A stretch of 46,787 nucleotides of DNA. Source: a virus. Location: the IMG/VR virus record IMGVR_UViG_3300009709_000007, positions 1 through 46,787 of that record; one strand, written 5' to 3'. The notes below the pieces were generated by a model, which saw only the letters and a list, made by a program, of their open reading frames with translations, ran no database searches and had not been told where the DNA came from. Position 1 is the first letter of the stretch. Every line of letters begins with the position of its first letter. A program made the position numbers and the translations under genes. Below, in pieces: positions 1,330-46,541 of the stretch.

Positions 1330-2810
1330 ACACGGTGGTCGAGGTCGATCCGGTGCGCTTCCTGATCGAAGCCGCGCGGACCAACTACGCCGCGTTCGTC
1401 TCGGCCGTTCACCGGCCCCGCTTCATGCACAGCGCATTCTCACTGCGCGTGTGCGCGGCGGTCGATCAGTTCGTGGAAGCGGTGATACGCGGCGAGCGCC
1501 CCGTGCTTATGCTGACGGCGCCGCCACAGCATGGTAAGAGCAGCCTCATCTCTCGCTGTCTGGGGCCCTACCTGTTCGGACGCCTTGCCGGGCAGTTAGG
1601 CAACTCGGCCGATAGCGGCGTGCGCATCGCCTGCGCCTCCTACGCCCTGTCTCTGGCTCGGCGCAACGCACGCGACGCTAAGTCGATCATGGGCGAGCCG
1701 ATCTATCGAGAAATCTTTCCGCACGCCTCCCTGATCGGCTTCAAGGGCGTGAATACCGCCGAGGCCTTCGACGTGCCAGGCGGTGGTGGCCTGCGCGGCG
1801 TCGGCGTCGGCGGCTCGCTGACGGGCTTTTCCGTAGACGTCGCCTTGGTGGATGACCCGACCAAGGATCAGCTCGAGGCACTGTCCGCAGTGACCCAGGA
1901 CAACCTCGAGGCTTGGTACGACTCGGTACTGTCCACGCGTCTCCAGGAGCGATCGGGTATCGTCATCATCGGCACGCCCTGGTCCTCCAACGACCTGCTC
2001 GCGCGCGTGCGCCGCAAACTGGAGGGCGATCCGCGCTTCCAGTTGCTATCGTTCCCGGCGCTGAACCTGCCCGATGAGATTGGCTACGACCCCGAACTGC
2101 CCGAAGGTGCGCTGGTCCCCCAGCTGCACAGCCTGACCAAACTGCGCGAGATGCAGCGCCACATGGGCGAGTTCTGGTGGTCTGCGATGTTCCAGCAGGT
2201 GCCACTGTCCGAGTTCGGCGCGATCTTCAAGCGCGACAAGCTCAAGTATTACCGCCGAGCCGAGCTACCCAAGCAGTTCGTGCGCACGATCATGTCGGTA
2301 GACGCGACCTTCAAGGACGGCGACGCCTCGGACTACGTGTTCGTGGGCGTCTGGGGCAAGACCAAGGACGAGGACGTTTACCTCATTCACTGGCGCCGCG
2401 AGAAGCTCGCCTTTATGGCGACTGCGCGTGCTATCGCGGACCTGAAGACCGACCACCCAAGCGTGTCCCGCGTCTACATTGAAGAAGCGGCGAATGGCGC
2501 CGCGCTAATCGACATGCTCAAGAAGCACTTCCCGATGCTGGAGGGCGTCAAGCCTTTGGGCTCCAAGGAGGCCCGCGCACACGCCGTATCGTGGGTGTGG
2601 GATGCTGGTAAGGTCTACCTGCCGCACCCGGACGAGACACCAGGCATCAAGCCGGTGGTCGCCGAAATCACCAGCTTCCCGGACACCACCACGGGCCACG
2701 ACGACGCGGTGGACGGCATGACTATCGCCCTTCAGCAGTTGTGCCTACGTAACCCCATTTCGGCTATGATCAGTGCCGATATCCTTCGCGCCGCCGGAGT
2801 GCGCACCTGA
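1326..2810 (+). CDS. terL: Terminase large subunit
   Basis: 494 aa. Walker A-like LTAPPQHGKSS and Walker B-like VALVDDP are present, with a nuclease-like C-terminal half. It lies directly upstream of the portal gene. The GTG start overlaps the preceding stop. Confidence 0.9.
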   Translation: MNTVVEVDPVRFLIEAARTNYAAFVSAVHRPRFMHSAFSLRVCAAVDQFVEAVIRGERPVLMLTAPPQHGKSSLISRCLGPYLFGRLAGQLGNSADSGVRIACASYALSLARRNARDAKSIMGEPIYREIFPHASLIGFKGVNTAEAFDVPGGGGLRGVGVGGSLTGFSVDVALVDDPTKDQLEALSAVTQDNLEAWYDSVLSTRLQERSGIVIIGTPWSSNDLLARVRRKLEGDPRFQLLSFPALNLPDEIGYDPELPEGALVPQLHSLTKLREMQRHMGEFWWSAMFQQVPLSEFGAIFKRDKLKYYRRAELPKQFVRTIMSVDATFKDGDASDYVFVGVWGKTKDEDVYLIHWRREKLAFMATARAIADLKTDHPSVSRVYIEEAANGAALIDMLKKHFPMLEGVKPLGSKEARAHAVSWVWDAGKVYLPHPDETPGIKPVVAEITSFPDTTTGHDDAVDGMTIALQQLCLRNPISAMISADILRAAGVRT

Positions 2811-4471
2811 TGACCGACGACAAGCCGAAGCGTTACCGCCGCACGAAGGCCCAAATGGCGGCTGATCGGGCCGAAGCCACACGGCTCGCAGGCGCGACCC
2901 CGGCTACGACGCTACCCCCTCTCGGTTCTAACGAGACGCGGCGCGCGGGCTTGGCCGCGGCCGTCCTGAATGCCCCCGCGGCCGGGCCTACGCCCAGCGT
3001 TGCCGCGGCGACGGGGTTCCACGTGGAACCCGAACACTACTCCAAGCGTGAGCGGGCGCAGGCCCATATGGCGATGGACTTCAACGGCGCCAGCATGAAC
3101 GCATTGTCGTTCGTGGAGGCTTCGGGCTGGCCCGGTTTCTCCACGCTCGCTCTCTTGGGTCAGCTGGCCGAATATCGGGTGATGCACGAGGCACTGGCCG
3201 ACGAGTGCGTGCGTAAGTGGGGCCGCGTGGTCACTTCCGGTAACTCGGACCCGCAGCGCATTCGGGACATTGAGGCCGAACTTGAGCGTCTTAACCTGAA
3301 GGCCGTGGTTCGTCAGATGGTTGTGGATGATCAGGCCTACGGCGGCGCCCATGCGTTCTTCAAGATGAAGGGCGACGATGGCGACGTGGTGAGCAAGAAA
3401 GGTCGCGAGGAGTCCGTGCGCGAGTTGCCACTGGTCGCCAAGCCGTACACGGTGCGAAAGGGCTCGTTCGAGGCCATTCGGGTCGTCGAGCCTCGCCATG
3501 TCACTCCGAACGACTACAACGCAATCGACCCGACCCGTGCGGACTTCTACAAGCCGGTCAGTTGGTGGGTGCTATCGGTCAAGGTGCACGCCTCGCGCCT
3601 GTACACGATCGTGTCGCGCCCCGTATCGGACATGTTGAAGCCGACCTACTCGTTTCGCGGCATCTCCCTGACCCAGCTGGCGATGCCCTACGTGGACAAC
3701 TGGCTGCGCACGCGTCAGAGCGTGTCAGATACCACCAAACAGTTTTCCGTATCGGGCATTCAGACCGACCTGGCCCAGCAGCTCACACCAGGCGCCGGTA
3801 CTGACCTTCAGATGCGTGCCGCGCTTATCAATGCCTACAAAGACAACCGCAACCTGTTGCTACTGGACAAGGCCACGGAAGAATTCTTTCAGGTCAACAC
3901 GCCGCTGACCGGTCTGGACGCGCTCCAGGCGCAGTCCCAGGAGCACATGTCGGCGGTGAGCCAGACACCCCTAGTCAAGCTGACCGGCATCACCCCGGCA
4001 GGTCTCAACGCCTCCAGCGACGGCGAAATTCGCGTCTGGTACGACCGCGTGGGCGGTTACTGCAAGAACGTGCTGGGACCCTTCATCGCGCGCGTGCTGG
4101 AGCTGGTCCAGCTGTCGCTGGATAGCGTCATCGACGAGCACCTGTCATGGGACTGGAACCCGCTGCACGAGCTGACCGCGCTGGAGGAGGCCGATCGCCG
4201 AGCGAAGGACGCCGACACGGCGGCCAAGTACATCGAAGCCACGGTCATCACGCCCGAGCAGGAAGCCGAACGGCTGGCGAACGATCCGACCAGCGGCTAT
4301 GCCGGCATCCTGAACAGGCCAGCGACGCCGGACGACTTCGACGACACTGACGTCCAAGGCATCGTCAACGAATTGCTTGAGCCTATGGCCGAGGAAGCTG
4401 CAAATGGAACTACGGATGCCGGGCAAGCGGTCCAAGACCCTGCCACCGATCCCGTCCAGCCACTCGGCTGA
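2810..4471 (+). CDS. Portal protein
   Basis: 553-aa ORF immediately after terL (TGATG stop/start overlap). Size and position are typical, it has an acidic C-terminus, and it resembles DUF1073-type portals by recall. Confidence 0.8.
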   Translation: MTDDKPKRYRRTKAQMAADRAEATRLAGATPATTLPPLGSNETRRAGLAAAVLNAPAAGPTPSVAAATGFHVEPEHYSKRERAQAHMAMDFNGASMNALSFVEASGWPGFSTLALLGQLAEYRVMHEALADECVRKWGRVVTSGNSDPQRIRDIEAELERLNLKAVVRQMVVDDQAYGGAHAFFKMKGDDGDVVSKKGREESVRELPLVAKPYTVRKGSFEAIRVVEPRHVTPNDYNAIDPTRADFYKPVSWWVLSVKVHASRLYTIVSRPVSDMLKPTYSFRGISLTQLAMPYVDNWLRTRQSVSDTTKQFSVSGIQTDLAQQLTPGAGTDLQMRAALINAYKDNRNLLLLDKATEEFFQVNTPLTGLDALQAQSQEHMSAVSQTPLVKLTGITPAGLNASSDGEIRVWYDRVGGYCKNVLGPFIARVLELVQLSLDSVIDEHLSWDWNPLHELTALEEADRRAKDADTAAKYIEATVITPEQEAERLANDPTSGYAGILNRPATPDDFDDTDVQGIVNELLEPMAEEAANGTTDAGQAVQDPATDPVQPLG

Positions 4472-5443: not shown

Positions 5444-5644
5444 CTACTGCGTCAGCAACCGCAGGCCCTTGCATGGCTCTCTCTGCCGCCCCATCGCATA
5501 GCCCGTTGCCGAGTGCCAGAGAAGAATCGCGGCACGCTTATCCAGGGGACCGAATTCGCTGGCGACTTCAAATGCTTGGTTGAAGGCTCGCAACTCATGG
5601 CGCAGCTGTGCGGGAGATTCATCAAAAGGATACTTGTCGGACAT
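5444..5644 (-). CDS. Hypothetical small protein (accessory cassette 1)
   Basis: 66-aa minus-strand ORF, last gene of a three-gene minus cassette driven by the promoter at 6227-6255. Confidence 0.45.
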   Translation of the reverse strand: MSDKYPFDESPAQLRHELRAFNQAFEVASEFGPLDKRAAILLWHSATGYAMGRQREPCKGLRLLTQ

Positions 5645-5662
5645 GTGGGTGCCTCGGTGAGG

Positions 5663-5818
5663 TTAAAGGCGGTGCGTGAGCGCCAGCACGACGACCACGA
5701 CTAGGATCAGCAGCACGATGCTGGACGGGCCATAGCCCCAGCCCGCGCTGTAACCCCAGGTCGGCAGGCCGCCCAGCAGGGCCAGGATCAACACGACGAT
5801 CAGAATGGTCATCAACAT
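5663..5818 (-). CDS. Small membrane protein, DUF3309-like
   Basis: Hand-translated 51-aa ORF, below the track cutoff: MLMTILIVVLILALLGGLPTWGYSAGWGYGPSSIVLLILVVVVVLALTHRL. It has two hydrophobic segments around a PTWGYSxxWGYGP core, typical of DUF3309 (recall). Confidence 0.65.
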   Translation of the reverse strand: MLMTILIVVLILALLGGLPTWGYSAGWGYGPSSIVLLILVVVVVLALTHRL

Positions 5819-5874
5819 GGCTGGCGCTCCGGCGGTTTAGGTGGGCGCAGTACGCGCCGCGAAATGTGAAGACA

Positions 5875-6195
5875 CTACGCCACGTAGCCGGACATCTCGT
5901 CGAAGATACGGACAGCCTCGAACCCATCATATTCGCTGATCTCAAAGGTGTACCCTTGCGGCACCCACTCCACCGACAGCGGCACGCCGAGCGTGCACAC
6001 GTATTCCTCATTTGCCCACACCCGCTCGATCACGGCCAGCTGTGTCTCGCCAGTTTCGCCAAGTGCAGCGGCAACGAGATCGGGGCAGAAAACCGCCTCC
6101 TCGCCGAGGCATCCGTTCCAGGTAGACCATCCCGCACCGTAACCAGGTGAATATAGAACGGCAACCTTGCCGTCGCGTACAACTTTGTCCGTCAT
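5875..6195 (-). CDS. Hypothetical protein (KVAVLYSPGYGAGWSTW family)
   Basis: Start trimmed to ATG 6195 (MTDKVV), which has ggag upstream. The track start 6258 lies inside the promoter. The motifs recall a widespread uncharacterised phage/plasmid family. Confidence 0.6.
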   Translation of the reverse strand: MTDKVVRDGKVAVLYSPGYGAGWSTWNGCLGEEAVFCPDLVAAALGETGETQLAVIERVWANEEYVCTLGVPLSVEWVPQGYTFEISEYDGFEAVRIFDEMSGYVA

Positions 6196-6226
6196 TTCGA
6201 TAACTCCAGTGGGTAGGTGTAGGTCT

Positions 6227-6255
6227 ATCTTACTTACTTCTCGATTACCTGTCAA
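6227..6255 (-). promoter_or_regulatory. Sigma70-like promoter for cassette 1
   Basis: The reverse complement reads TTGACA-ggtaatcgagaagtaag(17)-TAAGAT. The spacer contains GGTAATCG, which is the family core CGATTACC in inverted orientation. Confidence 0.65.
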
Positions 6256-8250: not shown

Positions 8251-9258
8251 ATGAACGATCGTCAGCTTATCGCGTCGTTGGCTAACAAGGGCGTCATTCT
8301 GCCCTCGTCGGTCAGCAACATTTCCATCCCGGCAGACCAGTACGCCATGGACGCCGCGTCCCTGGCCCCGACGCTGGTCACCAATGCCAACTCGGGCATT
8401 CCGTCGTTCCTTACCACCTTCGTCGATCCGAAGGTGATCAAGGTCCTGGTCGCCCCCATGGCCGCCGTCGAACTCGTTGGCGAAGCCAAGAAGGGCGACT
8501 GGACCACGCTCAACGCCGCATTCATCGTGGCCGAGCCGCTGACCCGTGTCGCTACCTATGGCGATTACAGCAACGACGGCACGTCCAACACGAACGTGAA
8601 CTACCCGGAGCGCCAGTCCTACTTCTTCCAGACGTGGACCCGTTGGGGCGAGCGTGAACTCGAAATGGCCGGTGCCGGCCGTATCGACCTGGCGGCGCAG
8701 CTGGACTACGCTTCGGCCCTTGGCCTGGCGAAGTTCTTGAACCAGTCCTACCTGTTCGGCGTAGCCGGTCTGCGTAACTACGGCCTCATGAACGACCCGC
8801 GCCTTCCGGCTCCAGTCGCCGGTACGGTCAACTGGGCGACGGCCGCTCCGGAAGCCATCTTCAACGACATCGTGGACACCTTCACGCAGTTGCTGTCGCA
8901 GTCGCAGGGCCTCATCAAGCAGAGTGACGAGCTGACCCTGGGCCTGCCCCCGACCGCCGTGGGTAACTACAACCGTACCAACTCGTACGGCCTGTCGGCG
9001 GCGAAGCTGCTCAAGGATGCCTTCCCGCGCATCCGCATCGTGGAAGTGCCGGAGTTCGACACGGCCACCGGTCGTCTCATGCAGATGTGGGCGCCGGAAG
9101 TTGAGGGCCAGCAGACCGCGACCTGCGCGTTCACCGAGAAGATGCGCGCCCACGCCGTGGAACGTTACAGCTCCTACTTCCGTCAGAAGAAGTCGGCCGG
9201 TACCTGGGGTGCGGTGATCTTCCAGCCGCTCGCCGTAGCGCAGAAACTGGGCATCTGA
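8251..9258 (+). CDS. Major capsid protein
   Basis: 335 aa with a strong aggag RBS. Its position after the scaffold/decoration genes and a strong terminator just downstream fit a capsid gene. It resembles DUF2184-type capsid proteins by recall. Confidence 0.75.
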   Translation: MNDRQLIASLANKGVILPSSVSNISIPADQYAMDAASLAPTLVTNANSGIPSFLTTFVDPKVIKVLVAPMAAVELVGEAKKGDWTTLNAAFIVAEPLTRVATYGDYSNDGTSNTNVNYPERQSYFFQTWTRWGERELEMAGAGRIDLAAQLDYASALGLAKFLNQSYLFGVAGLRNYGLMNDPRLPAPVAGTVNWATAAPEAIFNDIVDTFTQLLSQSQGLIKQSDELTLGLPPTAVGNYNRTNSYGLSAAKLLKDAFPRIRIVEVPEFDTATGRLMQMWAPEVEGQQTATCAFTEKMRAHAVERYSSYFRQKKSAGTWGAVIFQPLAVAQKLGI

Positions 9259-9293
9259 CCTTGGATCGGGGCACGACTGACTGCTAGACCGAA

Positions 9294-9325
9294 AGGCCCG
9301 GATCATTCCGGGCCTTTTTCTTTTG
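9294..9325. terminator. Rho-independent terminator after the capsid gene (bidirectional hairpin)
   Basis: Stem aggcccgga, loop tcat, stem tccgggcct, followed by tttttctttt. It overlaps the 3' end of the convergent minus ORF 9303-9524. Confidence 0.85.
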
Positions 9326-9524
9326 CGGTCTTGGCAATCTGGTGCTTCCAGAAGTCGCGCTCGCCGCGAAGCATCTGGCCGACCGGGTTGCTTGCCGGGA
9401 AGCCCTTGATCGTGCTGTTGAGGTTCCGCAACGCGTCTTGCGCGATGTCCACGCCGTACTTCTCCAGTGCCTTGCGGCCCTCGATGATGCCGTTGCAGTA
9501 GTGCTCGCTGGCAGTGCTGGGCAT
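9303..9524 (-). CDS. Hypothetical small protein (single-gene antisense accessory unit)
   Basis: 73-aa ORF with gaggaa RBS and its own promoter at 9554-9582. It ends in the terminator hairpin. Confidence 0.6.
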   Translation of the reverse strand: MPSTASEHYCNGIIEGRKALEKYGVDIAQDALRNLNSTIKGFPASNPVGQMLRGERDFWKHQIAKTAKEKGPE

Positions 9525-9553
9525 GGGCAGTTCCTCAATGGGTTAGTGGGGTC

Positions 9554-9582
9554 ATCTTATCGCTAGGTAATCGCGTTGTCAA
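9554..9582 (-). promoter_or_regulatory. Sigma70-like promoter, conserved-spacer family
   Basis: The reverse complement reads gtgTTGACAacgcGATTACCTAGCGATAAGAT (17-nt spacer). Confidence 0.75.
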
Positions 9583-9652: not shown

Positions 9653-10117
9653 ATGACCACGAACGTTCAATACGACCTGACCGCAACCAATCTCGCACCT
9701 GGCTCCGCGCCGCAATCGGTCCTTCTGACCGCCGTGGTCAATCCGGACGGTTCGGCTATCAGTGCCGGCGCGAGCGGTGGATCGTCAGGTGCTACGTCTT
9801 TCGCCAGTGAGTTCGTGACTTCGGATACACCCGTGGACATCAAGGTGCCCGCGGGCGCCATGAGTGTCCTAAAGTCCTTGCGGGCTACCGCTTACGATCC
9901 ACAAGCCGCTCAAGCAGGGACTGGCGTACTCCACTTGATCATCGACAGCGTGGTCTATTCGTTACCTTACGCGGCGGCCAGTGCGTCCACCAACAACGTG
10001 TTCGAGCTGGCTTACCTCGAAAACCTCAACATGCCGATCACCGGGAACGCGATCCAAGCTCAGCTAGGGAGTGCGCTAACTGGCGGCGGGATCGTTGTCA
10101 CCGCGACATTTGCTTAA
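9653..10117 (+). CDS. Hypothetical protein (possible virion protein)
   Basis: ATG 9653 is preceded by ggag. The plus-strand ORF lies between the capsid gene and the minus cassette, and its composition is Ala/Ser/Gly/Thr-rich. Confidence 0.5.
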   Translation: MTTNVQYDLTATNLAPGSAPQSVLLTAVVNPDGSAISAGASGGSSGATSFASEFVTSDTPVDIKVPAGAMSVLKSLRATAYDPQAAQAGTGVLHLIIDSVVYSLPYAAASASTNNVFELAYLENLNMPITGNAIQAQLGSALTGGGIVVTATFA

Positions 10118-10476
10118 CGCGGGTGCCACCAGGTTTCCGAACCATGCTGCGCCATGCAGTTTTCAAAGGCGCCTTGGGCAATCTGATCAGGCGTGGACAT
10201 CATCCATCCACCGTAGTGGTAGACCATGGTGAGGTTCACTTCGTTGTCCGCTGCGAGACGCGGATTAGTGGTGTTGGCCGGACCCCGCCGAAGAATGGTC
10301 AGCAGCGCTTGTTCTTTGAACCCATCGTCGCGGTAACCGGCTAGCGTCCCCGCCACGCCAGCAACACCGACGCAGTATTCAAAGAGCGGGCGAGTGTACG
10401 CAGTGTTTTCGTAGCGTTCGGCCATCACGGGCGCCGCGATCAGCACGAGCAGTGCAGTAGCTAGTAATCGTTTCAT
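10114..10476 (-). CDS. Secreted/periplasmic hypothetical protein
   Basis: The start MKRLLATALLVLIAAPVMA looks like a Sec signal peptide. ggag RBS is present. I trimmed the track start 10500 to 10476. Confidence 0.6.
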   Translation of the reverse strand: MKRLLATALLVLIAAPVMAERYENTAYTRPLFEYCVGVAGVAGTLAGYRDDGFKEQALLTILRRGPANTTNPRLAADNEVNLTMVYHYGGWMMSTPDQIAQGAFENCMAQHGSETWWHPR

Positions 10477-10631
10477 ACTCCGTCCCTCGCTTTGAGCCAA
10501 CCCTTGATGAAAGCCCTACGCTCGTCCGAACCGAGCGGCCATTTCAACGCTAAGCAATCAGCTACCAGGGGGGCGTCGCCCGAGCGTAACCCACAACTCT
10601 AGGTAGCTATTGTAACCCTGTTCTTCCGGGG

Positions 10632-11462
10632 TCATGACTTACCTCCGGCGCGCTCGAGTGCGGCAAAAAGGGCATCGCGCTCGCTACACCACGCCGCCGA
10701 CCGCGCCGACTCCGCCGCCGCCGACCGCGCCGACCACGCCGACCACGCCGCCGACCGCGCCGCCGACCACGCCGACCGCGCCGCCGACCGCGCCGCCGAC
10801 CGCGCCGACGCCGCCGACGCCGCCGCCGACCACGCCGCCGCCGACTCCGCCGCCGACTCCGCCGCCGACTCCGCCGCCGCCGACCACGCCGACCGCGCCG
10901 CCGACCGCGCCGCCGACCGCGCCGCCGACCGCGCCGCCGACAATTCGCATGTGTTGCCACCGGCGGCGGCCTCGTGTGCGCGGCGACCGACACCCAGCGC
11001 GGCGATAACGCCTTCGATTGCCTCATGCACGCCGTGGTCATGCTTCTTTTTCAGGAGCTCACTCAACGTGCCGAACTGCCGGTCAATACGATCAATGGCG
11101 ATCCAGTGCTGGACAGGCTCAAGATCAGCTCCCACCGGGATCCGCTTAGCCAGGTCAACATGGAAGTTGGCCCTGAGCTCCTGCGGAAGACCTTCGAACA
11201 TCGAATCCTGAAGGCGGATCAACCAGACGGGGAGTCCACGCGCTCCTGCCACCACCTCGTGCCAGTTGGCACCCGTGGTCGGTTCGATCTCGTGAGCAAA
11301 GCAGCCAACCGAGCAGCCCCGGAACTGGCCGGCGTCTACGTCACCGAACGTGCCGGCGACCAACATGTCAGCAGCAGCGTGCCGCTCGGCCTGGGCAACG
11401 TGAGTCGCCTTCAGCGCGGCATCGCCGAAGAAAGACAAATGGGACTTATTGGTAGTGGTCAT
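10632..11462 (-). CDS. Hypothetical protein: ~170-aa N-terminal domain plus ~85 residues of SAAX tetrapeptide repeats
   Basis: This is the only frame with a coherent non-repeat N-terminus, an RBS (aggaaa) and its own promoter (11491-11519). The repeat region reads SAARSAARSAARSAARSAWSAAAESAAESAAESAAAWSAA... Confidence 0.7.
   Translation of the reverse strand: MTTTNKSHLSFFGDAALKATHVAQAERHAAADMLVAGTFGDVDAGQFRGCSVGCFAHEIEPTTGANWHEVVAGARGLPVWLIRLQDSMFEGLPQELRANFHVDLAKRIPVGADLEPVQHWIAIDRIDRQFGTLSELLKKKHDHGVHEAIEGVIAALGVGRRAHEAAAGGNTCELSAARSAARSAARSAARSAWSAAAESAAESAAESAAAWSAAASAASARSAARSAARSAWSAARSAAWSAWSARSAAAESARSAAWCSERDALFAALERAGGKS
10684..10945. repeat. Tandem 12-bp (some 9-bp) GC-rich coding repeats
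   Basis: Units such as gccgccgaccgc repeat about 22 times. On the coding strand each unit is tcggcggcgcgg, which encodes SAAR. The track shows ORFs in four frames across the region because the repeats lack stop codons. Confidence 0.9.
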
Positions 11463-11490
11463 GGGGTTTCCTGTCTGTGAGTGTGTGACT

Positions 11491-11519
11491 ACTTTATCGA
11501 AAGGTAACTGCTATGTCAA
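11491..11519 (-). promoter_or_regulatory. Sigma70-like promoter, conserved-spacer family (drives the SAAX-repeat gene)
   Basis: The reverse complement reads gtgTTGACAtagcAGTTACCTTTCGATAAAGT (17-nt spacer). Confidence 0.7.
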
Positions 11520-11522
11520 CAC

Positions 11523-11696
11523 TTATTTCGTGGTCGGGACGCAGCGCACAAATACTGGACCCTCCTGGCGCAGTTCACGTGTGCCCAACGCGGCGATCCG
11601 GCACGCAGTAGGGCTAGCGTACAGCTTGGCGACGTAGTTCACGCACTGCATCGACTGCATGCTGCACAGGGTGAAGACAAGCGCGGTCAGGTTCAT
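11523..11696 (-). CDS. Hypothetical small protein
   Basis: 57 aa. Its ATG overlaps the upstream stop as ATGA (11693-11696). Confidence 0.45.
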   Translation of the reverse strand: MNLTALVFTLCSMQSMQCVNYVAKLYASPTACRIAALGTRELRQEGPVFVRCVPTTK

Positions 11697-11917
11697 GAAC
11701 CGTCTCCAGGCAGCGCGGTCACCAACGACCGCACGTAGCAATGGGTGATGTAGCGCGAGCCGTCCGAGTGTTGCCACACGCGGCACCAGCGATTGGCGTA
11801 GTAGATCATGAAACGCGTCGGGAGCCGGATGGCGCCATGCATGGACTTGGACTGCGGAACGGGCGTCGTACGTACGCGCACGGTGCGCGTCTCGTCTTTC
11901 AGGTGCAGAAGGGCCAT
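11693..11917 (-). CDS. Hypothetical small protein
   Basis: 74 aa (MALLHLKDETRTV...). ATGA overlap with the upstream gene at 11914-11917... precisely, the ATG occupies 11915-11917 and the upstream TGA occupies 11917-11919. Confidence 0.5.
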   Translation of the reverse strand: MALLHLKDETRTVRVRTTPVPQSKSMHGAIRLPTRFMIYYANRWCRVWQHSDGSRYITHCYVRSLVTALPGDGS

Positions 11918-12177
11918 CACTCCCCCTGCCGCAGGTGCATGCGCGCCTGCTTCAGTCGGCCGGCGCGGCAATCCAGGTCCACGAGCCGCTTGACGAGATT
12001 GTCGTAGATAGCGGCTAGCTGCGTCTCGGCCGCGGTGATCGCGTCGCTAGCCTTCGCATAGACATCGGCCTTCAGGACCTTGCGCCGCCCCGTGAGCCAG
12101 TAGTCGGGCGCATCCAGAGCCGGCCGCAGGTTCACCGCTTGGACGCGTAGGGAGGGTGTCACGATGTAGCCCTTCAT
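11917..12177 (-). CDS. Hypothetical small protein
   Basis: 86 aa (MKGYIVTPSLRV...). ATGA overlap with the upstream gene at 12174-12177. Confidence 0.55.
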   Translation of the reverse strand: MKGYIVTPSLRVQAVNLRPALDAPDYWLTGRRKVLKADVYAKASDAITAAETQLAAIYDNLVKRLVDLDCRAGRLKQARMHLRQGE

Positions 12178-12353
12178 GCCCAAGTATCCAGACTAGGTGT
12201 CAGCGGTTTGACCTCAAGGATGACGACGTAGTGGCCTTCGCCGCGGTCGTGCTCGCGAGCCAGTCCCGCGATACGGTCGGACAGCAGGTCCGTCGTGAGG
12301 CAGTCATCGGTGAATTGCACGCCGTTGATGGTATAGGTGAGGTTGTAGAACAT
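12174..12353 (-). CDS. Hypothetical small protein
   Basis: Hand-translated 59-aa ORF, below the track cutoff: MFYNLTYTINGVQFTDDCLTTDLLSDRIAGLAREHDRGEGHYVVILEVKPLTPSLDTWA. It starts 2 nt after the upstream stop. Confidence 0.5.
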   Translation of the reverse strand: MFYNLTYTINGVQFTDDCLTTDLLSDRIAGLAREHDRGEGHYVVILEVKPLTPSLDTWA

Positions 12354-12355
12354 GG

Positions 12356-12550
12356 TCAGACCTCCAGTCCAGTGATCAAGCCCACTACAAACTGATCGAG
12401 TTCAAGGCGCGCCGCCATCAATTCGGCTGCAATTGCTTGAGCCTCACCGGGCGGCTGCGCGCCGCTCCATGCTTCGTCCGCGGCAGCTTCGATGAGTCGA
12501 TTTCTTAGCATGTTGTACTTCGCGGCCTTATCCTGATTCGATGTGTTCAT
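12356..12550 (-). CDS. Hypothetical small protein, first gene of accessory cassette 2
   Basis: 64-aa ORF downstream of the promoter at 12583-12611. Confidence 0.55.
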   Translation of the reverse strand: MNTSNQDKAAKYNMLRNRLIEAAADEAWSGAQPPGEAQAIAAELMAARLELDQFVVGLITGLEV

Positions 12551-12582
12551 TGTGGGGGCGTCTAGCAGGTGAGTGTGGGCGT

Positions 12583-12611
12583 AGCTTACCGCTAGGTAAT
12601 CGGCATGTCAA
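12583..12611 (-). promoter_or_regulatory. Sigma70-like promoter, conserved-spacer family (drives cassette 2)
   Basis: The reverse complement reads gtgTTGACAtgccGATTACCTAGCGGTAAGCT. It has a 17-nt spacer and a perfect TTACC-tagc-GGTAA dyad. Confidence 0.75.
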
Positions 12612-12678: not shown

Positions 12679-13065
12679 ATGGCAAAAAATGACACCAAGC
12701 GTTCCGCTACGACCGTTACCGTCGCCTGCAAGCTCCCGATGGGCCTCGCCGTGAAGCTTCCCGATGGTTCGCACCTGCACCTGCATGGCGCGAATTCACC
12801 GTGGGCCGTGGCCGGCTTCGGCCTGACCCAGGGCGTCAGCTCGGACACCTGGGACTTCATCAAGCAGGAACACGCTGGCGCCAAATGGCTTGTCAACGGC
12901 TTCGTCTTCGCGCAGAGCGAGCACGACTCGGCAGTGGATCAGGCGAAGGACGAAGCCGAGCGTAAAGCGGGCTTCGAGCCGATCGACCCGAACAACCTGC
13001 CCAAGGGCGTGCAGAACGGCGGGGGCAACATCGGCAAGGAAGGCCGCGACCCGTTCGCGGGCTAA
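12679..13065 (+). CDS. Hypothetical protein (head/neck module)
   Basis: ATG 12679 is preceded by ggag. 128 aa. I trimmed the track start 12541 because it lies in the divergent promoter region. Confidence 0.55.
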   Translation: MAKNDTKRSATTVTVACKLPMGLAVKLPDGSHLHLHGANSPWAVAGFGLTQGVSSDTWDFIKQEHAGAKWLVNGFVFAQSEHDSAVDQAKDEAERKAGFEPIDPNNLPKGVQNGGGNIGKEGRDPFAG

Positions 13066-14028: not shown

Positions 14029-14592
14029 GTGTCAGAATGGCGGCCTGTTGTGGGTTTTGAAGATCAGTATCTCGTCAGTGACTGCGGCCGCGTCCTGCGC
14101 CGCGAGCGCGTTATCGAGCGCAGCAATGGCCACCACTACACGGCGAAGGAAATGGAGCTGGCACAGGTTGCCTACGGTCACACCCGCGAGTACCTGGGGG
14201 TGGGTTTCAAGGTGGCCCGAAAGACCAATCGCGTGTTTCTGGTGCATCGATTGGTTGCAGCGGCTTTTTTGCCGAATCCTGACGGGCTTCCCGAGGTAAA
14301 CCACAAAGACCTAGACAAGCGCAACAATAACGTAGCGAATTTAGAGTGGTGCGGTAAGGTTGCCAATCAGGAGCATGCCGCTAAGCGTGGACGCTTTCAT
14401 GGGCGCACTAACCCGAACGCCCGCTTTAAGCTTCAACCCGAGCAGGTAGATGCCATCTTGGCGCGGCTTTCTGCGGGCGAGAAAGGTGTAGACCTAGCCG
14501 CAGAATTTAACATCTCGCCGAGCATGGTTTACATGATCCGCAAGGGGGCAACTTGGGCCGATCCCGCGAAGGTGTATGCACATGTCGCGTAG
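14029..14592 (+). CDS. HNH homing endonuclease (NUMOD4 + HNH_3 type)
   Basis: SEWRPVVGFEDQYLVSDCGRVL matches the NUMOD4 motif, and VNHKDLDKRNNNVANLEW matches an HNH core. A C-terminal HTH-like segment is present. GC content is visibly lower than in the neighbouring genes. Confidence 0.85.
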   Translation: MSEWRPVVGFEDQYLVSDCGRVLRRERVIERSNGHHYTAKEMELAQVAYGHTREYLGVGFKVARKTNRVFLVHRLVAAAFLPNPDGLPEVNHKDLDKRNNNVANLEWCGKVANQEHAAKRGRFHGRTNPNARFKLQPEQVDAILARLSAGEKGVDLAAEFNISPSMVYMIRKGATWADPAKVYAHVA

Positions 14593-21809: not shown

Positions 21810-23628
21810 AGCGGAAACTCCGTAGGGTGCCTTCATGAAGGAAGCGTACTTCGGTCAGAAATACACGGCCATCTTCGTATTTGGTAAGCGTAATGTCAAT
21901 GGGCTGCGGGATCAGCTCGCGCTGGAGAATCACGCGGTAGGCCTCGGTCGGCACCTTGCGCCCGGTGGCCGCTTCGAAGAACTTGCGCGCCTGGGCGTAG
22001 AAGCGGTTGTCCGCCGTGGTGCGATCAAAGTCCAGCCGTAGCGGGTGGATACCCGCGTCGGTCTCGTACTCGAATAGCAGCACGCTGTTGGCGGACGGCG
22101 TGACGCGCATGCCGCGCACTTCGAGCGTGCGAGTCTCCCGGCATAGCTCGTCGCGCAGGACCACCGCATCCTCGTCGTGCAGCTCGTAGCTGTCGCTGTC
22201 ACCCAAGATGCTAGGTTCGGTAGGTCCGCGACGGACACGGGTCGCCATGAAGCCCTGGCGTGGCCGGCCGCACTGCCTACAGGTCAAATGCTCGGCGTCG
22301 TTGAGATAACCGCAGGGCGGCGTGTCGGGCTCCATGAGACCCAGCACCAGCCGCAGGTCCGTTTCGGGCTGGCCCGGGTTGTTGACCGGGAACCGAATGG
22401 CCGACTTCTCGCGCAGCGACGTGCTGACCGTCTTGCGCCCGGCCTCGATCGGCGCGGTGACGTGCTCGTCGGAGCAGGCCCACAGGCCCGCGCGTGAGTC
22501 ACCCACGTCCACCGGCGCGTTGATCGGTCCGTGGCGCGTGAAGTTCCCGCCGGCGTCCAGCACCAGGCAATTCTCCTTGCCCGGGTAGACCCGGAAGCCA
22601 CGACCGACGATCTGGCGGAACAGCGGCAGGGATTTGGTAGGGCGCAGGATGACCAAGCAGTCCACGAACTTCGCGTTGAAGCCCGTCGTCAACATAGCGA
22701 CGCTGACCACATGCCGGTGCTGCTTAGACAGGTAGGCGTCGATGCCCTCGACGCGCTCACCCTTCTCCAGGTCGCCATGGATCAGCACCGCCGACTCGCC
22801 GCGGTCGATCAGCGCCTTGTGGATCATCCGGGCGTGCTCGACGTTGACCGCGAACCACATGAAGTGCTTGCGGTCGGGCGTGTGCTCCAGCGCGATGGCG
22901 ACGCACTGCTGCGTGACCTCCATGGCCCGCCGGGCGAGTTCGGCCTCGTCGAAGTCCCCGCCCTTGGTCTTGACGCCCTCGGTGTCGATCTGCGGGAACC
23001 GGATGGTGGGGGCGACGATCGGGGCGATGACGCCCTCGCGCACCAGCCGGTTGAATTTCCTCCCGCTGGTCAGGTCGTACACGCGCGTGTCGAACAGGCC
23101 GCACTGCGTCAGCGGCACCACCTTGGCGCCCTTCATCCGGTAATCGGTGGCAGTCAGGCCGATGAACAGCACCTTGGGGTTGTTCGCGCGCAGGCCGTCC
23201 ACGATGGACTTGCCGGTCTTGGTCGACACGTCGAAGGTGTGCGCCTCGTCCACCACCACGAAGTCGATGCGCCCAAAGCGCGCGACCTGCCGCGCGACCG
23301 ACTGCGGCGAGCCGTAGATGATCTGCGACTGCCGGTCCTTCATCTTGAGGCCGGCGCAGTACACGCCCAGGCGCGACACCAGGCCCGGCGCCCAGAATCC
23401 CGTGGCCTCCTCGACGTTCTGCGCCACCAGCTCCATCGAGGGCGCCAGCACCATGATGCGGGCCTTGGGCCAGTGCTGGAGGATGTTCTCGACCAGCATG
23501 GCCGCGATCAGCGCCTTGCCGCCGCCGGTGACGATCGCCGCGATGGGGTTGACGTTCGAGGCGGCGATCAGCGTAGAGACGACAGCCGCGTCGGCCTCCC
23601 GCTGATACCAGTAGGGGGTGAGGCGCAT
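21793..23628 (-). CDS. SF2 DEAD/DEAH-box DNA helicase
   Basis: Walker A TGGGKALIA, DEAH box VVDEAHTF, and helicase C-domain motifs (VAMLTTGFNA, QIVGRGFR). A CRQCGRP zinc-ribbon-like segment is present. Start trimmed to ATG 23628, which has an aaggaa RBS. Confidence 0.9.
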   Translation of the reverse strand: MRLTPYWYQREADAAVVSTLIAASNVNPIAAIVTGGGKALIAAMLVENILQHWPKARIMVLAPSMELVAQNVEEATGFWAPGLVSRLGVYCAGLKMKDRQSQIIYGSPQSVARQVARFGRIDFVVVDEAHTFDVSTKTGKSIVDGLRANNPKVLFIGLTATDYRMKGAKVVPLTQCGLFDTRVYDLTSGRKFNRLVREGVIAPIVAPTIRFPQIDTEGVKTKGGDFDEAELARRAMEVTQQCVAIALEHTPDRKHFMWFAVNVEHARMIHKALIDRGESAVLIHGDLEKGERVEGIDAYLSKQHRHVVSVAMLTTGFNAKFVDCLVILRPTKSLPLFRQIVGRGFRVYPGKENCLVLDAGGNFTRHGPINAPVDVGDSRAGLWACSDEHVTAPIEAGRKTVSTSLREKSAIRFPVNNPGQPETDLRLVLGLMEPDTPPCGYLNDAEHLTCRQCGRPRQGFMATRVRRGPTEPSILGDSDSYELHDEDAVVLRDELCRETRTLEVRGMRVTPSANSVLLFEYETDAGIHPLRLDFDRTTADNRFYAQARKFFEAATGRKVPTEAYRVILQRELIPQPIDITLTKYEDGRVFLTEVRFLHEGTLRSFRYDPTY

Positions 23629-25361: not shown

Positions 25362-25390
25362 AGGATAGTCCTAGGTAACCGGGATGTCAA
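25362..25390 (-). promoter_or_regulatory. Sigma70-like promoter, conserved-spacer family (internal to the replication module)
   Basis: The reverse complement reads gtgTTGACAtcccGGTTACCTAGGACTATCCT (17-nt spacer), then ttgccc, then ATG. Confidence 0.7.
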
Positions 25391-26600: not shown

Positions 26601-29085
26601 ATTGCACCTCGTTTGTGGGTTGTTCGGTAAGCGCGATCTTAGCATTTTCTTGCAGCATGTCAACAAAGGCCGGCGGGGCTTCGTAATAGCGCATACCCTT
26701 GGCATCGCAGCCCGCCTGCCAGCCGCGGGCCTTGAGCCAGCGGGCGACCTCCTGGGCCGAGAAGCGGCGCCCGGTGATCTGCACGTCCAGCGCGACGCGC
26801 AAGGCGGCGGACAGCACGCGCCAGTGGTTGCTGACGCGTGCGGCGGAGCGCTCGAGGATCGGCGGGAGGATGTCGTCCAGGTCCGACACCGGCAGGCCCA
26901 CGCCGTTGCGCATGGCCTCCTCGTTGAAGGCGCGCACCGCGTCGGAAGCTTCGCGCACGAGGGCCAGGTAATGCTCGTAGTCGGTGCAGAACCGCGCCTT
27001 AGCCTCGGCGACGATCTGGGCGACGTCCACGGCCCAGTTCGGGCTGGGCGACTGCATGACCCAGACGGGCATCAGGCGGCGCTCGCCGGTCTCGTCGCGG
27101 TAAATCTCCGGCTTGTTGGCCGTGCCGACCAGCGCGAAGCGGCGCGGGTGCGACTGCTCTTTTCGGCCGTAGGGCGTGCGGAAGACGTCCTGCGTGTCGG
27201 TGATCCAGTGCTTGACCTCTTCCACGTCGCGCTTGCCGTGCCCAGCCATCTCGGCGAGCTCGGCCACCGGGGAGCGCGCGGCGGCCATGGACATGCGACG
27301 CACGTCGCCGAACGGGAGCTCGGTCGGTGCCGGGAAACCCAGCGTCGTCGCGAACTGCTTGACCCACAGGCTTTTGCCCGGGCCCTGCTTGCCGATCAGC
27401 ACCGGCACGATAGGCGCTGGCGCGCCCGGGCGCAGCTGGCGCATGACCATGCCGGCGACGAACGCGCGTGCGGCGTAGGTCAGCGCCGTGCTGGGCAACG
27501 CGCCGAAAATGTCGGAGAACATCTCGTCCAGCCGATCCACGCCGTCCCACTGCGGCAGGGCCAGGATGGCATCCTTCCACGGGTCCACCGGATTGCTGGC
27601 AGCCAGGTGGTCGCGGGCGCGCTCCACGGTACCGTCGGAGACCTGCGAACAGCCCACGTGCGTCAGCGCGGCCAGCCACGCCGAGACGGAGGGGCCATCG
27701 GTAGGCAGCACCTCCTCGAGGCACACGTCCAGCGCCAGCTCGATATCGGCGGCACGCGCCAGGTGGTCCATGGCGAACATCACGTTGCGCAGCGAGTTAC
27801 GTTTCTTGTCGCCGCGGTCGGGCCATTCCTCGAAGGTGCCGCGCAGGCGCTCGGCGGCCAGTTCGAGCGGCGTGGATGGCTCATGCGCATGCGCGTCGGC
27901 GAACTCGAAGAATTCCTGAAGCTTGTGCGACCAGATGCCGGGCTTGCCGCGCATCGTGACGATTTCGGCCTTGCCAAGGTGTCCGGGCTTCAGGTCCGGG
28001 CGGAAGGTGTCGAAGGGGTCGGCGCACGTGCGCCCGAGCGCGCTGGAAAGGTTGTCCAGCACCTGCTCGACGGTGATAACCGGCTCGACGCCCGCGACGC
28101 GCAGCGGCCAGGACAGTGGCAGGCGGCGGTCACCCAGCGCGCGCAGCGCCAGCACGCCCAGGCGGTCGCCATCCTCGCGCCCAGCGGCCAGCGCGTTGCC
28201 GCGGTGATAGTCCAGCGCGACACGCTTGGCCTCCACGCGCAGGCGATCCTTGGCCTGGCGCACGGCCGCGTCGAAGCGACGGCGGGCGATGTCGGTAACG
28301 GCAGGCAGTTCCTGCACGTCCAGCCAGCCCTCGGGTGTCTTGTACCTGGCGACCTTGGTCAGGACTTCCGGTGCGCGGTGCACCCACGCCTGATCGGCGG
28401 GCACGTCACGCACGACACCCTCGGCCAGCTTGGGATGGGCTTCGAACATCAGCCGCGAGGACTGGTAGACCGTTGCGTCCGACAACTGGCGCACCAAGAG
28501 GGCACCCGAACGGCTGATCACGATGCGGCCGCGTCCGGCCGCCCACTGGTCCAGCTGGATACGCTTGCCCAGATCGGGAATGTCGGACCCCCGAGTCACG
28601 GGCACGTAGACATGCACGCCGCGTAGGCCGCGGCCACCGACGAACGACGAGGACGAGGGGCGCGCGGCGCGCGCGACGTGGCGCAGCCACGGTGAGGTGG
28701 CCTCCAAGGCGTCCAGAACGTCCGCAACCGTGTTGTAGACACCCGTGTCGGTGTCCACGTCGATTGGGAAGAATGCAGGCCCATCGAGGTAGCGAAAGGC
28801 TTCATTGGTCCGAGCGACGGCCTGAGGATTGAAGTCGGCGCCCTTGCGCGTCGTCAGCGGCGTGTCGCCCACGAGCGGCACGCCCAGGGTGATAGCCTGG
28901 TGGTCCGTAAGGGAGTCCAGCAGTGTGCGCAGACCGTCCAAGTCGGGCACTTCGCGAATGCTCGCGTGGCCCTGGGTCATGTGGGCAATGGCGGAACTCG
29001 TAATGTTTCCGCTGTCGTTCAGTTCAAAAGTTTTGGTCATCTCGCAGGAAGCGGAGGTGACGACTGTCAAGCGTGGGCTTGCCAT
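26593..29085 (-). CDS. DNA primase/helicase, VirE (virulence-associated protein E)-like
   Basis: 830 aa. P-loop LIGKQGPGKSLW lies in the C-terminal half, and a large N-terminal domain is present. The size and its co-occurrence with PolA, DUF2815 and DUF2800-like genes fit VirE-type primases (recall). Confidence 0.75.
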   Translation of the reverse strand: MASPRLTVVTSASCEMTKTFELNDSGNITSSAIAHMTQGHASIREVPDLDGLRTLLDSLTDHQAITLGVPLVGDTPLTTRKGADFNPQAVARTNEAFRYLDGPAFFPIDVDTDTGVYNTVADVLDALEATSPWLRHVARAARPSSSSFVGGRGLRGVHVYVPVTRGSDIPDLGKRIQLDQWAAGRGRIVISRSGALLVRQLSDATVYQSSRLMFEAHPKLAEGVVRDVPADQAWVHRAPEVLTKVARYKTPEGWLDVQELPAVTDIARRRFDAAVRQAKDRLRVEAKRVALDYHRGNALAAGREDGDRLGVLALRALGDRRLPLSWPLRVAGVEPVITVEQVLDNLSSALGRTCADPFDTFRPDLKPGHLGKAEIVTMRGKPGIWSHKLQEFFEFADAHAHEPSTPLELAAERLRGTFEEWPDRGDKKRNSLRNVMFAMDHLARAADIELALDVCLEEVLPTDGPSVSAWLAALTHVGCSQVSDGTVERARDHLAASNPVDPWKDAILALPQWDGVDRLDEMFSDIFGALPSTALTYAARAFVAGMVMRQLRPGAPAPIVPVLIGKQGPGKSLWVKQFATTLGFPAPTELPFGDVRRMSMAAARSPVAELAEMAGHGKRDVEEVKHWITDTQDVFRTPYGRKEQSHPRRFALVGTANKPEIYRDETGERRLMPVWVMQSPSPNWAVDVAQIVAEAKARFCTDYEHYLALVREASDAVRAFNEEAMRNGVGLPVSDLDDILPPILERSAARVSNHWRVLSAALRVALDVQITGRRFSAQEVARWLKARGWQAGCDAKGMRYYEAPPAFVDMLQENAKIALTEQPTNEVQYG
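26636..26663 (-). promoter_or_regulatory. Sigma70-like promoter embedded in the 3' end of the primase gene
   Basis: The reverse complement reads TTGACA-tgctgcaagaaaatgc(16)-TAAGAT. It lacks the conserved TTACC spacer motif. Confidence 0.55.
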
Positions 29086-29466: not shown

Positions 29467-29495
29467 ACAATACATGCAACCATCTTAGCGGTCAA
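29467..29495 (-). promoter_or_regulatory. Sigma70-like leftward promoter of the replication module
   Basis: The reverse complement reads TTGACC-gctaagatggttgcatg(17)-TATTGT. It lies just left of the AT-rich element. Confidence 0.6.
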
Positions 29496-29504
29496 CCACG
29501 TAAC

Positions 29505-29761
29505 CGTCTCGTCTATCGTGAACTTCCATCTCATCACCATCTTGACCAAATCTTTAGGAAAGACAGAGGAACAGAGGATATTTTCTACTTTCTTATATTT
29601 AATATATTTCTATAAATAGTAGTGTAGGGATAGATATTTATATATATACAGGTGTTTTCGCATATAGAGAAAAGTTTGAAGAATCGTCATCTGTCCTCTG
29701 TTCGTCTGTTCGTCTGTTACATTTGAAACTAATTCAAACACGCGTTTGAGACCAAAGTAGT
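29505..29761. repeat. AT-rich junction element, copy 1 (~257 bp, ~32% GC by hand count)
   Basis: Aligns without gaps to 46531-46785. Positions 29540-29761 are identical to 46566-46785 except for one extra TA. It contains inverted 8-mer iterons, a (TA)5 run and a TTTGAA-N5-TTCAAA dyad. Confidence 0.95.
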
Positions 29762-29795: not shown

Positions 29796-30179
29796 ATGGA
29801 CACCCTGCGCCTCGACAACGACTCTTGGGACCTCACGCTGGACGTCTGGGGCAACCTGGCGACGGCCGGTGACGCTACACCCGAGTCAGAGAGCACAGGA
29901 CCGGGCATGCGTCTCGCGCAAGACGTCGCCTGTCGCGTGCGGTCGTGGAAGGGCGAGGTGTATTTCGACACGGCACAGGGCATTGACTATCCGCGCTACC
30001 TCGGCGGCCCGCCCAACCTGTCACTGCTTCAGGCGGCCTTCGCGCAGGAAGCGCTCAACGTGCCCGGCTGCTTGACCGCGTTGCCCGACTTCCACTTCAT
30101 CGGCGGATCGGATCGAGCGGTCACAGGCACCATCACACTATCCGATACGGCCGGCAACGGCTCGCAGGTGACGCTATGA
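29796..30179 (+). CDS. Putative baseplate/tail protein
   Basis: 127 aa, first gene of the tail module. The N-terminal pattern (DNDSWDLTLD..GNLA..) resembles small baseplate proteins by recall. Confidence 0.4.
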   Translation: MDTLRLDNDSWDLTLDVWGNLATAGDATPESESTGPGMRLAQDVACRVRSWKGEVYFDTAQGIDYPRYLGGPPNLSLLQAAFAQEALNVPGCLTALPDFHFIGGSDRAVTGTITLSDTAGNGSQVTL

Positions 30180-31010: not shown

Positions 31011-31039
31011 TTGACATGCCGATTACCTACAAGTATCGT
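31011..31039 (+). promoter_or_regulatory. Sigma70-like promoter, conserved-spacer family (plus strand)
   Basis: TTGACAtgccGATTACCTACAAGTATCGT (17-nt spacer), followed by an aaggaa RBS and ATG 31067. Confidence 0.7.
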
Positions 31040-46512: not shown

Positions 46513-46541
46513 AGTGTACTCGTTCCTTATCGTCTCGTCAA
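46513..46541 (-). promoter_or_regulatory. Sigma70-like leftward promoter of module 4
   Basis: The reverse complement reads TTGACG-agacgataaggaacgag(17)-TACACT. The -35 lies in the divergent left edge of the AT-rich element. Confidence 0.55.

Follow-up and report, generated by a model that had tools for sequence, protein, structure and literature searches.

We analysed a block of minus-strand genes (10114-12611) situated in the slot between the capsid and neck genes of the phage record IMGVR_UViG_3300009709_000007, whose whole stretch of 46,787 nucleotides (nt) is called the window here. This cassette comprises seven intact genes and one frameshifted gene, together with two copies of a conserved promoter element. 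The window is a myophage genome of 62% guanine plus cytosine (GC) and of the Bcep781/Kantovirinae/Bakolyvirus type; the Bcep781-like group has been described as virulent. The major capsid protein of the window (8251-9258) shares 73% identity with the homologue of Ralstonia phage PQ43W, 66-70% with those of Adzire and Bcep781, and 55% with those of Xanthomonas phages. Megablast of the first 24 kilobases (kb) of the window against GenBank phages gave a DNA match confined to the helicase gene (71-76%), with zero match for the cassette region. Two Logan contigs assembled from run SRR5829574 are each 100% identical to the window. The features of the cassette and its two flanking genes are the following (aa, amino acids):

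12583-12611, minus strand: promoter P1, TTGACA-17-TAAGCT, back-to-back with the plus-strand gp09-like gene
12356-12550, minus strand: g1, 64 aa
12174-12353, minus strand: g2, 59 aa
11917-12177, minus strand: g3, 86 aa
11693-11917, minus strand: g4, 74 aa
11523-11696, minus strand: g5, 57 aa
11491-11519, minus strand: promoter P2, TTGACA-17-TAAAGT, beginning 4 nt past the g5 stop codon
10632-11462, minus strand: g6, 276 aa, SA(A)X repeat protein
10688-10941, minus strand: tandem repeat array of g6, 12-nt unit in ~22 copies, encoding the SA(A)X tract
10473-10635, minus strand: gS', frameshifted small gene
10114-10476, minus strand: g7, 120 aa, with a signal peptide
9653-10117, plus strand: gp11-like flanking gene, converging on g7
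12679-13065, plus strand: gp09-like flanking gene (phrog_2085), first of the neck block and divergent from P1

A first-pass annotation, made from the sequence alone, had proposed a block with these limits. The positions that it gave for genes and promoters agree throughout with the list of open reading frames (ORFs) and with an independent gene caller, and both promoters exist, as members of one over-represented family. It had counted eight minus-strand genes; seven of them are intact and the eighth, gS', is frameshifted in the assembly. It had also read the last three junctions of the chain from g1 to g5 as ATGA overlaps, which is correct for g2/g3 (12174-12177) and g4/g5 (11693-11696) but not for g3/g4, where the sequence GTGATG gives a 1-nt TGATG overlap, or GTGA if the start codon is GTG. 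The gap between g1 and g2 is 2 nt.

We scored the ORFs by codon usage, with the score trained on eleven long genes of the window. Every ORF of the cassette scores positively and better in its own frame than in the five other frames (0.21-0.48 bits per codon for g1-g5 and g7), and the plus-strand ORFs that overlap the cassette have negative scores. The independent gene caller, applied to the two Logan contigs from the same sample, returned the same five small genes and g7. The GC fraction across 10-13 kb is 0.60-0.67, against ~0.62 for the window, with a single high value due to the repeat; Rfam and transfer RNA scans were both without result. Codon usage, gene calling and promoters together support the view of an autonomous, promoter-equipped, opposite-strand block of real protein-coding genes.

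Fixed core and exchangeable cargo

Relatives of the cassette were found by exact-sequence and profile look-ups of g4 and g7, followed by retrieval of the contigs. In eight metagenomic contigs from other samples (L015-L022) the slot is likewise occupied by this opposite-strand cassette, with a shared order: capsid gene, strong hairpin, single antisense gene with a promoter of the family, gp11-like gene, convergent antisense cassette, P1 and divergent gp09-like gene. The core g2-g3-g4-g5-g7 is complete in L019, L021 and L020, whose capsid proteins are 91%, 86% and 81% identical to that of the window (clustering matrix), and the short contigs contain portions of it. Within this clade g1 and g6 are restricted to the window; the place of g1 is taken in relatives by a gene of the unrelated family f9 or is empty, and the other positions of the cassette hold exchangeable genes that belong to families f9-f12 or are singletons, of which there are several. 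The genome type of L019 is listed in 44 sequence-index blocks, so the clade has been sampled repeatedly. IMG/VR scans for g4, g7 and the gp09-like gene gave no relative. A tblastn search of phage genomes with a concatenate of g1-g5 and g7 found no homologue of the cassette; the only homologues in the same search were those of gX, the antisense gene next to the capsid hairpin of the window, in Ralstonia podophages.

The strength of selection was estimated as the ratio of non-synonymous to synonymous change (dN/dS). Against the two closest relatives the core lies at 0.09-0.46, except for g3 against L021 (0.59). The values are 0.09-0.27 for g4, 0.14-0.22 for g2, 0.24-0.46 for g5 and 0.23-0.59 for g3, and g7 gives 0.12 against L021, its dS being saturated against L019. 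In the same two comparisons the gp09-like gene has 0.27-0.40 and the capsid protein 0.13-0.22, so at this distance the core appears about as constrained as the adjacent virion gene; against more distant relatives the values for g3 and g7 climb to ~0.6. The ranges recorded for single genes extend to 0.30 for g4 and to 0.26 for g7. The first-pass annotation had allowed for ORFs without conservation at the protein level. The genes are in fact conserved in the sister phages, with dN/dS well below 1, and the cassette is therefore real. These alignments show that its genes are genuine, that the core is under purifying selection and that the swappable cargo consists of g1, g6 and several genes interspersed in the block. 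The label "accessory", attached to the whole block at first, thus fits g1, g6 and the interspersed cargo but not the core, which none of the sister phages lacks where enough sequence is available.

The comparison with GenBank relatives gives a different picture, as the whole cassette is absent from them. The content of the post-capsid slot differs in every GenBank relative that we examined: gp11 and the gp10 methylase in Bcep781, small plus-strand genes in PQ43W and Adzire, an endonuclease with mixed small genes in RS-CA1, and in phiXaf18 a single minus-strand gene, gp09, for which a promoter and a bidirectional terminator are annotated. The slot is hence hypervariable across the Bcep781/Kantovirinae group. 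A second slot, between head-morphogenesis and protease genes, holds minus-strand genes in most relatives (PQ43W, Adzire, RS-CA1 and Bcep781), as it does in the window; for the two slots taken together, GenBank lists six minus-strand ORFs in PQ43W and gp15 (RusA-like) besides the methylase in Bcep781. Since minus-strand genes are annotated in the slots of relatives, antisense blocks in the head module are a known trait of the group, and phages of the Bcep781, Naesvirus, Kantovirinae and Bakolyvirus lineages have, at the same two positions, lineage-specific and often minus-strand genes. The Bcep781-group phages compared, unlike the window, have no homologue of g1-g5 or g7, and the post-capsid cassette of the window (2.5 kb, eight genes, two promoters) is the largest at this site among them. 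Specific to the window are the size of the block, the conserved core and the promoter family.

A promoter family shared with replication genes

The motif GTTGACATNNNNNTTACC, with up to two mismatches, has 7 matches in the window where 0.43 would be expected, a number not attained in any of 100 shuffles. P1 and P2 agree with the sigma-70 consensus at 10 of 12 positions. From 18 aligned copies, taken from the window and its relatives, we obtained the family consensus GTGTTGACAt..CG.TTACCTAgCg.TAagcTa..C.CACACTCAC, which spans ~45 nt and is kept in relatives at the positions P1, P2 and PX. All relatives whose contigs span the site (L016, L019, L020, L021 and L022) have a homologue of P1 upstream of the cassette, and homologues of P2 follow g5 in L015, L017, L018 and L021. 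In these four contigs the first gene behind P2 differs (a 67-aa, 54-aa or 88-aa gene, or g7 directly), so the site right behind P2 is a cargo site, occupied by g6 in the window. P2 is missing from L019, where g5 and g7 are separated by 7 nt. The distance from the -10 hexamer to the start codon is 27-35 nt in 7 of the 9 copies in the window, mostly with a ribosome-binding site of the GGAG or AGGA type; the ATG of g1 lies 32 nt downstream of the -10 hexamer of P1.

Other copies in the window are found at 29495, before the primase operon (minus strand), at 26663, after the primase gene, and at 46541, before the exonuclease gene, and there is a looser match at 21900, ahead of the DNA polymerase unit. 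Further copies lie at 6255 and 9582, where they belong to two other antisense units described below, and at 25390 and 31011. Because copies stand ahead of replication and recombination genes, we read the family as a host-polymerase regulon, and it probably defines the set of genes that the host enzyme would transcribe in this phage, early or in the middle of infection. Besides the -35 and -10 hexamers, the spacer (TTACCTAGCG) is conserved, and so are the bases transcribed first (CACACTCAC). This exceeds what recognition by sigma-70 needs and hints at a bound regulator; the conserved spacer and start suggest a putative binding site for a regulator of phage or host origin.

Next to one of these promoters, an AT-rich core (29560-29720) lies in the intergenic region that separates the minus-strand promoter of the primase operon (29495) from a divergent plus-strand gene starting at 29796. 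Inverted repeats, ACAGAGGA(A)CAGAGGA / TCCTCTGTTCGTCTGT, stand on either side of the core at a distance of 115-123 nt from each other, and the core looks like a candidate replication origin.

Products and surroundings of the cassette

The first product, g1, is acidic (isoelectric point, pI, 4.4) and its gene has no Shine-Dalgarno sequence. The g2 protein is also acidic, with 75-83% identity in six relatives and an invariant N-terminus, MFYNLTYTINGV. Both g3 (pI 9.8) and g4 (pI 10.3) are basic; g4 is the most conserved gene of the core and contains an invariant block, ANRWCRVWQHSDGSRYIT. In g5, four cysteines are invariant. Searches of Pfam, PHROGs, NCBIfam and PADLOC with every product of the cassette yielded sub-threshold noise only (for example pNTSase1, E 0.009, and adenylate kinase, E 0.019, the latter on the repeat). 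The PADLOC search, which covers defence rather than anti-defence families, gave no match. No helix-turn-helix regulator of the Aca type was detected in any cassette protein with Pfam and NCBIfam, and profile searches of Protein Data Bank (PDB) sequences with g2, g3, g4, g5, g6 and g7 returned none that was significant. The early impression that no product resembles a virion or replication function was thus borne out: virion, replication and lysis families are all without a significant match.

Below significance, the g3 profile aligns over 80 residues with the C-terminal helix domain of the phage P1 protein Hdf (E 0.13, PDB sequences; hhalign probability 33% over 45 columns). The score of 17 bits is higher than those of all 2000 composition-preserving shuffles of the Hdf fragment, and the match is therefore not one of pure composition. 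The Hdf family among GenBank phages is too uniform to provide a sharper profile. Hdf is a capsid-bound anti-restriction protein that lies on the inner capsid surface and binds DNA (PMC12810830).

The only cassette product with wider relatives is g6, for which 26 database homologues were found (E 6e-89 to 4e-29). Its N-terminal helical domain of ~175 aa has invariant residues H28, C50, C54, H68 and E90, and the family signature further includes an invariant W80 and FEGL, followed by the SA(A)X array and a W.ERDALFAAL tail, conserved as W.ERDALFAALERAG. Among homologues the array ranges from ~2 to 27 or more units, and X is W, R or E in most members and mainly Y, D, H or R in two. Both Logan contigs end within the g6 repeat, at 10787 and 10912; since short-read contigs break inside it, the number of repeats in g6 depends on one assembly. 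In Xanthomonas phages the g6 homologue adjoins the primase gene, and in temperate elements of Luteibacter, Lysobacter and related bacteria homologues stand beside CI/Cro and ERF/YqaJ/SSB genes; seven loci of the family were found in bacterial genomes. An IMG/VR phage contig, L007, carries two tandem g6 paralogues on the same strand (628-1563 and 2292-3155, ~700 nt apart), each with a long SA(A)X array of its own.

The AlphaFold2 model of g6 has a mean pLDDT (the predicted score of the local distance difference test) of 75, above 90 in the N-terminal domain and poor in the middle of the repeat. Foldseek found no PDB match to it with E below 1, and a single match in BFVD, to an uncharacterized phage protein. 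Neither Pfam, PHROGs nor NCBIfam has an entry that describes the family, and literature searches found no description of an SAAX-type repeat protein or of such cassettes. By its distribution, g6 is a mobile gene of phage and prophage early regions which landed behind P2 in this one phage.

Between g6 and g7 lies gS'. Removing one base at ~10587-10589 gives an ORF of 53 aa that is ATGA-coupled both to the stop codon of g6 and to the start codon of g7, and that aligns over its full length with the 54-aa gene of relative L017. The frameshift is identical in both assemblies of the sample, so that gS' would be either a true pseudogene or the result of a shared read error.

The last gene of the cassette, g7, encodes a Sec-type signal peptide (MKRLLATALLVLIAAPVMA, followed by ER after an AxA-like cleavage site) and a mature part of ~100 aa, modelled as a helical bundle with two invariant cysteines (AlphaFold2 mean pLDDT 83). 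The model has no match with E below 1 when compared with the PDB by Foldseek. A HMMER scan of 1.84 billion representative proteins retrieved four related clusters only, all of ~120 aa and with signal peptides, and no relative was found in 185,579 representative genomes or in IMG/VR. Two large proteins that also matched g7 (P0042 and P0043) are repetitive and were judged spurious, and a match to mannuronate lyase (E 0.023) contains no segment that is accepted when taken singly. A reading of the block as a lysis cassette was rejected because the holin, endolysin and Rz-like spanin genes sit elsewhere in the window, at 40.9-43.1 kb. By these searches g7 is a predicted secreted helical protein confined to this clade. 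Its export signal and the presence of P2 upstream make it no more than compatible with the class of periplasmic superinfection-exclusion proteins.

At the distal end of the cassette, g7 and the gp11-like gene have overlapping stop codons (TTAA). No terminator-like site was found at this junction (folding z -0.7 and -0.5 on the two strands), and simple scans of L019 and L021 found none there either. In the absence of a terminator, both the early minus-strand transcripts and those made late from the plus strand should extend over the gp11-like gene and the cassette, and regulation by convergent transcription is plausible from this layout. The gp11-like protein itself has a conserved N-terminus of ~40 aa, its length (97-360 aa) and C-terminus vary in sister phages, and its gene is sometimes duplicated; this pattern would suit a capsid-anchored decoration or fibre protein.

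The head module of the window contains two more antisense units with promoters of the same family:

9303-9582, minus strand: gX unit, a 73-aa gene with a family promoter at 9554-9582, between the capsid hairpin and the gp11-like gene
5444-6255, minus strand: second antisense cassette, promoter at 6227-6255 and genes of 106 aa, 51 aa (DUF3309) and 66 aa

Hypothetical proteins of Ralstonia phages RpY1 and DU_RP_II share 56% identity with the gX product, and sister phages have unrelated genes at the place of gX. The second cassette is inserted between head-morphogenesis and protease genes; DUF3309 is a family of small membrane proteins, and DUF3309 genes are found at the same position in L019 and L021. 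After the capsid gene there is a strong, GC-rich hairpin of 12 base pairs (9291-9318; z -5.2 and -6.5), the sole strong one, which has a U-run on the plus strand only, also forms the end of gX and is kept in L018 and L021. This hairpin probably acts as an attenuating terminator, by which the level of capsid messenger RNA would be raised relative to downstream genes. Elsewhere in the structural module, there is a weak GIY-YIG match beside the terminase gene (679-1329), and another weak one, to HNH_3, between neck genes (14029-14592); both look like homing-endonuclease genes.

Expression, function and kinship with known systems

We propose, with fair confidence, that the cassette is an operon pair in a plastic capsid-neck slot from which early-expressed, host-directed small proteins are made, one of them periplasmic. 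P1 would drive g1-g5 and P2 would drive g6-gS'-g7, as two operons on the strand opposite to the virion genes. Host sigma-70 RNA polymerase would transcribe the block, and since promoters of this family also stand ahead of the operons for replication and recombination, expression would fall early or midway in infection, without dependence on the late virion operon. The translationally coupled small products would act on the host cell, in takeover, anti-defence or exclusion, rather than in virion building, and the periplasm would be the place of action of g7, whose task may be, for instance, to exclude superinfecting phages or to protect the envelope. Early minus-strand transcripts would run antisense into the gp11-like gene, and late plus-strand transcripts would cross the cassette antisense, helping to switch it off.

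The first-pass annotation had already named host takeover, anti-defence or exclusion as likely functions. The architecture of the block speaks for this, but no homology or fold evidence was obtained for any of the three, and several observations count against the proposal. No product matches a takeover, anti-defence or exclusion protein in Pfam, PHROGs, NCBIfam or PADLOC, or by Foldseek for g6 and g7. We infer promoter activity and timing from consensus and position. The copy at 31011, on the plus strand, precedes an uncharacterized gene (31067) just upstream of the tail genes, so the family is not strictly tied to replication genes. In addition, a core fixed in the clade and located among head genes would also fit a virion-related role, and g3 and g4 resemble DNA-binding internal head proteins in their small size and basic character, g3 being faintly Hdf-like.

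These last points lead to the alternative that the core proteins, notably the basic g3 and g4 (pI ~10), are associated with the virion, as internal head or assembly proteins ejected with the DNA in the manner of P1 DarA/Hdf or the T4 internal proteins. The position of the cassette between capsid and neck genes, the constancy of the core in the clade, and the alignment of g3 with Hdf (80 residues, E 0.13, a score that 0 of 2000 shuffles reached), itself a DNA-binding protein of the inner capsid surface (PMC12810830), can all be read in this way. The resemblance to the Dar system would consist of the C-terminal helices of g3, which faintly recall the capsid-binding helix domain of Hdf, and of the neighbourhood of head genes (Hdf/DarA, PMC12810830); unlike the P1 genes, the cassette has a different strand and different promoters, the similarity is not significant (E 0.13, hhalign 33%), and there is no large partner resembling DarA. 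Moreover, the block lies on the opposite strand and has the promoter family of the replication operons instead of belonging to the late operon, more distant relatives make homologous virions without the cassette genes, and g7 is predicted to be secreted. We therefore regard a virion-internal role of the core as unlikely, if worth keeping in mind.

A second alternative is that the cassette is mainly regulatory: convergent antisense transcription over the gp11-like gene and the cassette would time or damp the late operon, and the proteins would be secondary. It draws on the overlapping stop codons, on the terminator-free junction of g7 and the gp11-like gene in the window, L019 and L021, and on the back-to-back promoter layout, which recurs at three sites of the head module. 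Low dN/dS and invariant peptide motifs, however, show that the proteins themselves are selected, and a cargo that varies behind a constant layout is what any operon would show. A chiefly regulatory role seems to us improbable. Lastly, codon-usage scores below those of the core genes of the phage, the lack of database families and the frameshift in gS' might recall chance open frames in GC-rich non-coding or decaying DNA, a notion already refuted by ORFs that are each the best of six frames, by syntenic homologues in eight independent contigs, where synonymous change outweighs non-synonymous change by far, and by start codons at a fixed distance from conserved promoters.

With a host-directed early operon pair as the favoured reading, the block is of a familiar kind, namely a set of small orphan genes with promoters of their own, placed at a plastic site within a structural module. 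Morons are autonomous transcription units between the late genes of tailed phages (Cumby et al. 2012, PMC3594210). The cassette is moron-like in having its own sigma-70-type promoters, in lying between conserved virion genes, in contents that differ between relatives (g1, g6, f9-f12) and in functions unrelated to the flanking module. It departs from a moron in being a multi-gene, opposite-strand operon rather than a single gene, with no terminator found, a base composition that matches the genome, a five-gene core fixed in the clade and a host phage group described as virulent.

Anti-CRISPR/Aca operons of Mu-like Pseudomonas phages are likewise promoter-equipped blocks of small genes inside the head module. 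The cassette shares with them small, coupled orphan genes with their own promoter, a location among head genes and variable cargo; unlike them, it has the opposite orientation, no detected Aca-type helix-turn-helix regulator and no similarity to known defence-related families. The early regions of T4 and T7 are clusters of early genes transcribed by the host polymerase, and the T4 proteins Imm and Sp are periplasmic or membrane exclusion proteins. Small, tightly packed, translationally coupled ORFs, strong sigma-70 promoters and one exported product recall these clusters; unlike them, the cassette is located inside a late structural module and has no sequence or fold similarity to them, and the likeness in timing is one that we infer.

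We see a slim chance that one of the products founds a new class of counter-defence or host-manipulation factors, which would be either the g6 family or a Dar-like core, g2-g5, ejected from within the capsid and encoded antisense. The SA(A)X array of g6, which is fused to the conserved Cys/His helical domain and differs in length between close homologues (~2 to more than 25 units), could serve as a tunable decoy or binding surface. Whatever its role, the g6 family consists of early-region mobile proteins whose tetrapeptide repeat is variable and unusual, and no solved structure was found to be significantly similar to the family. The core adds five orphan protein families under selection in an uncultured phage clade, a bounded target for experiments, and the shared ~45-nt promoter element is a probable marker of the host-polymerase regulon of the phage. 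Should anti-defence or exclusion be shown for any of the products, that product would represent a new family; otherwise the cassette would be a typical case of early-type genes parked in the gaps of a structural module.

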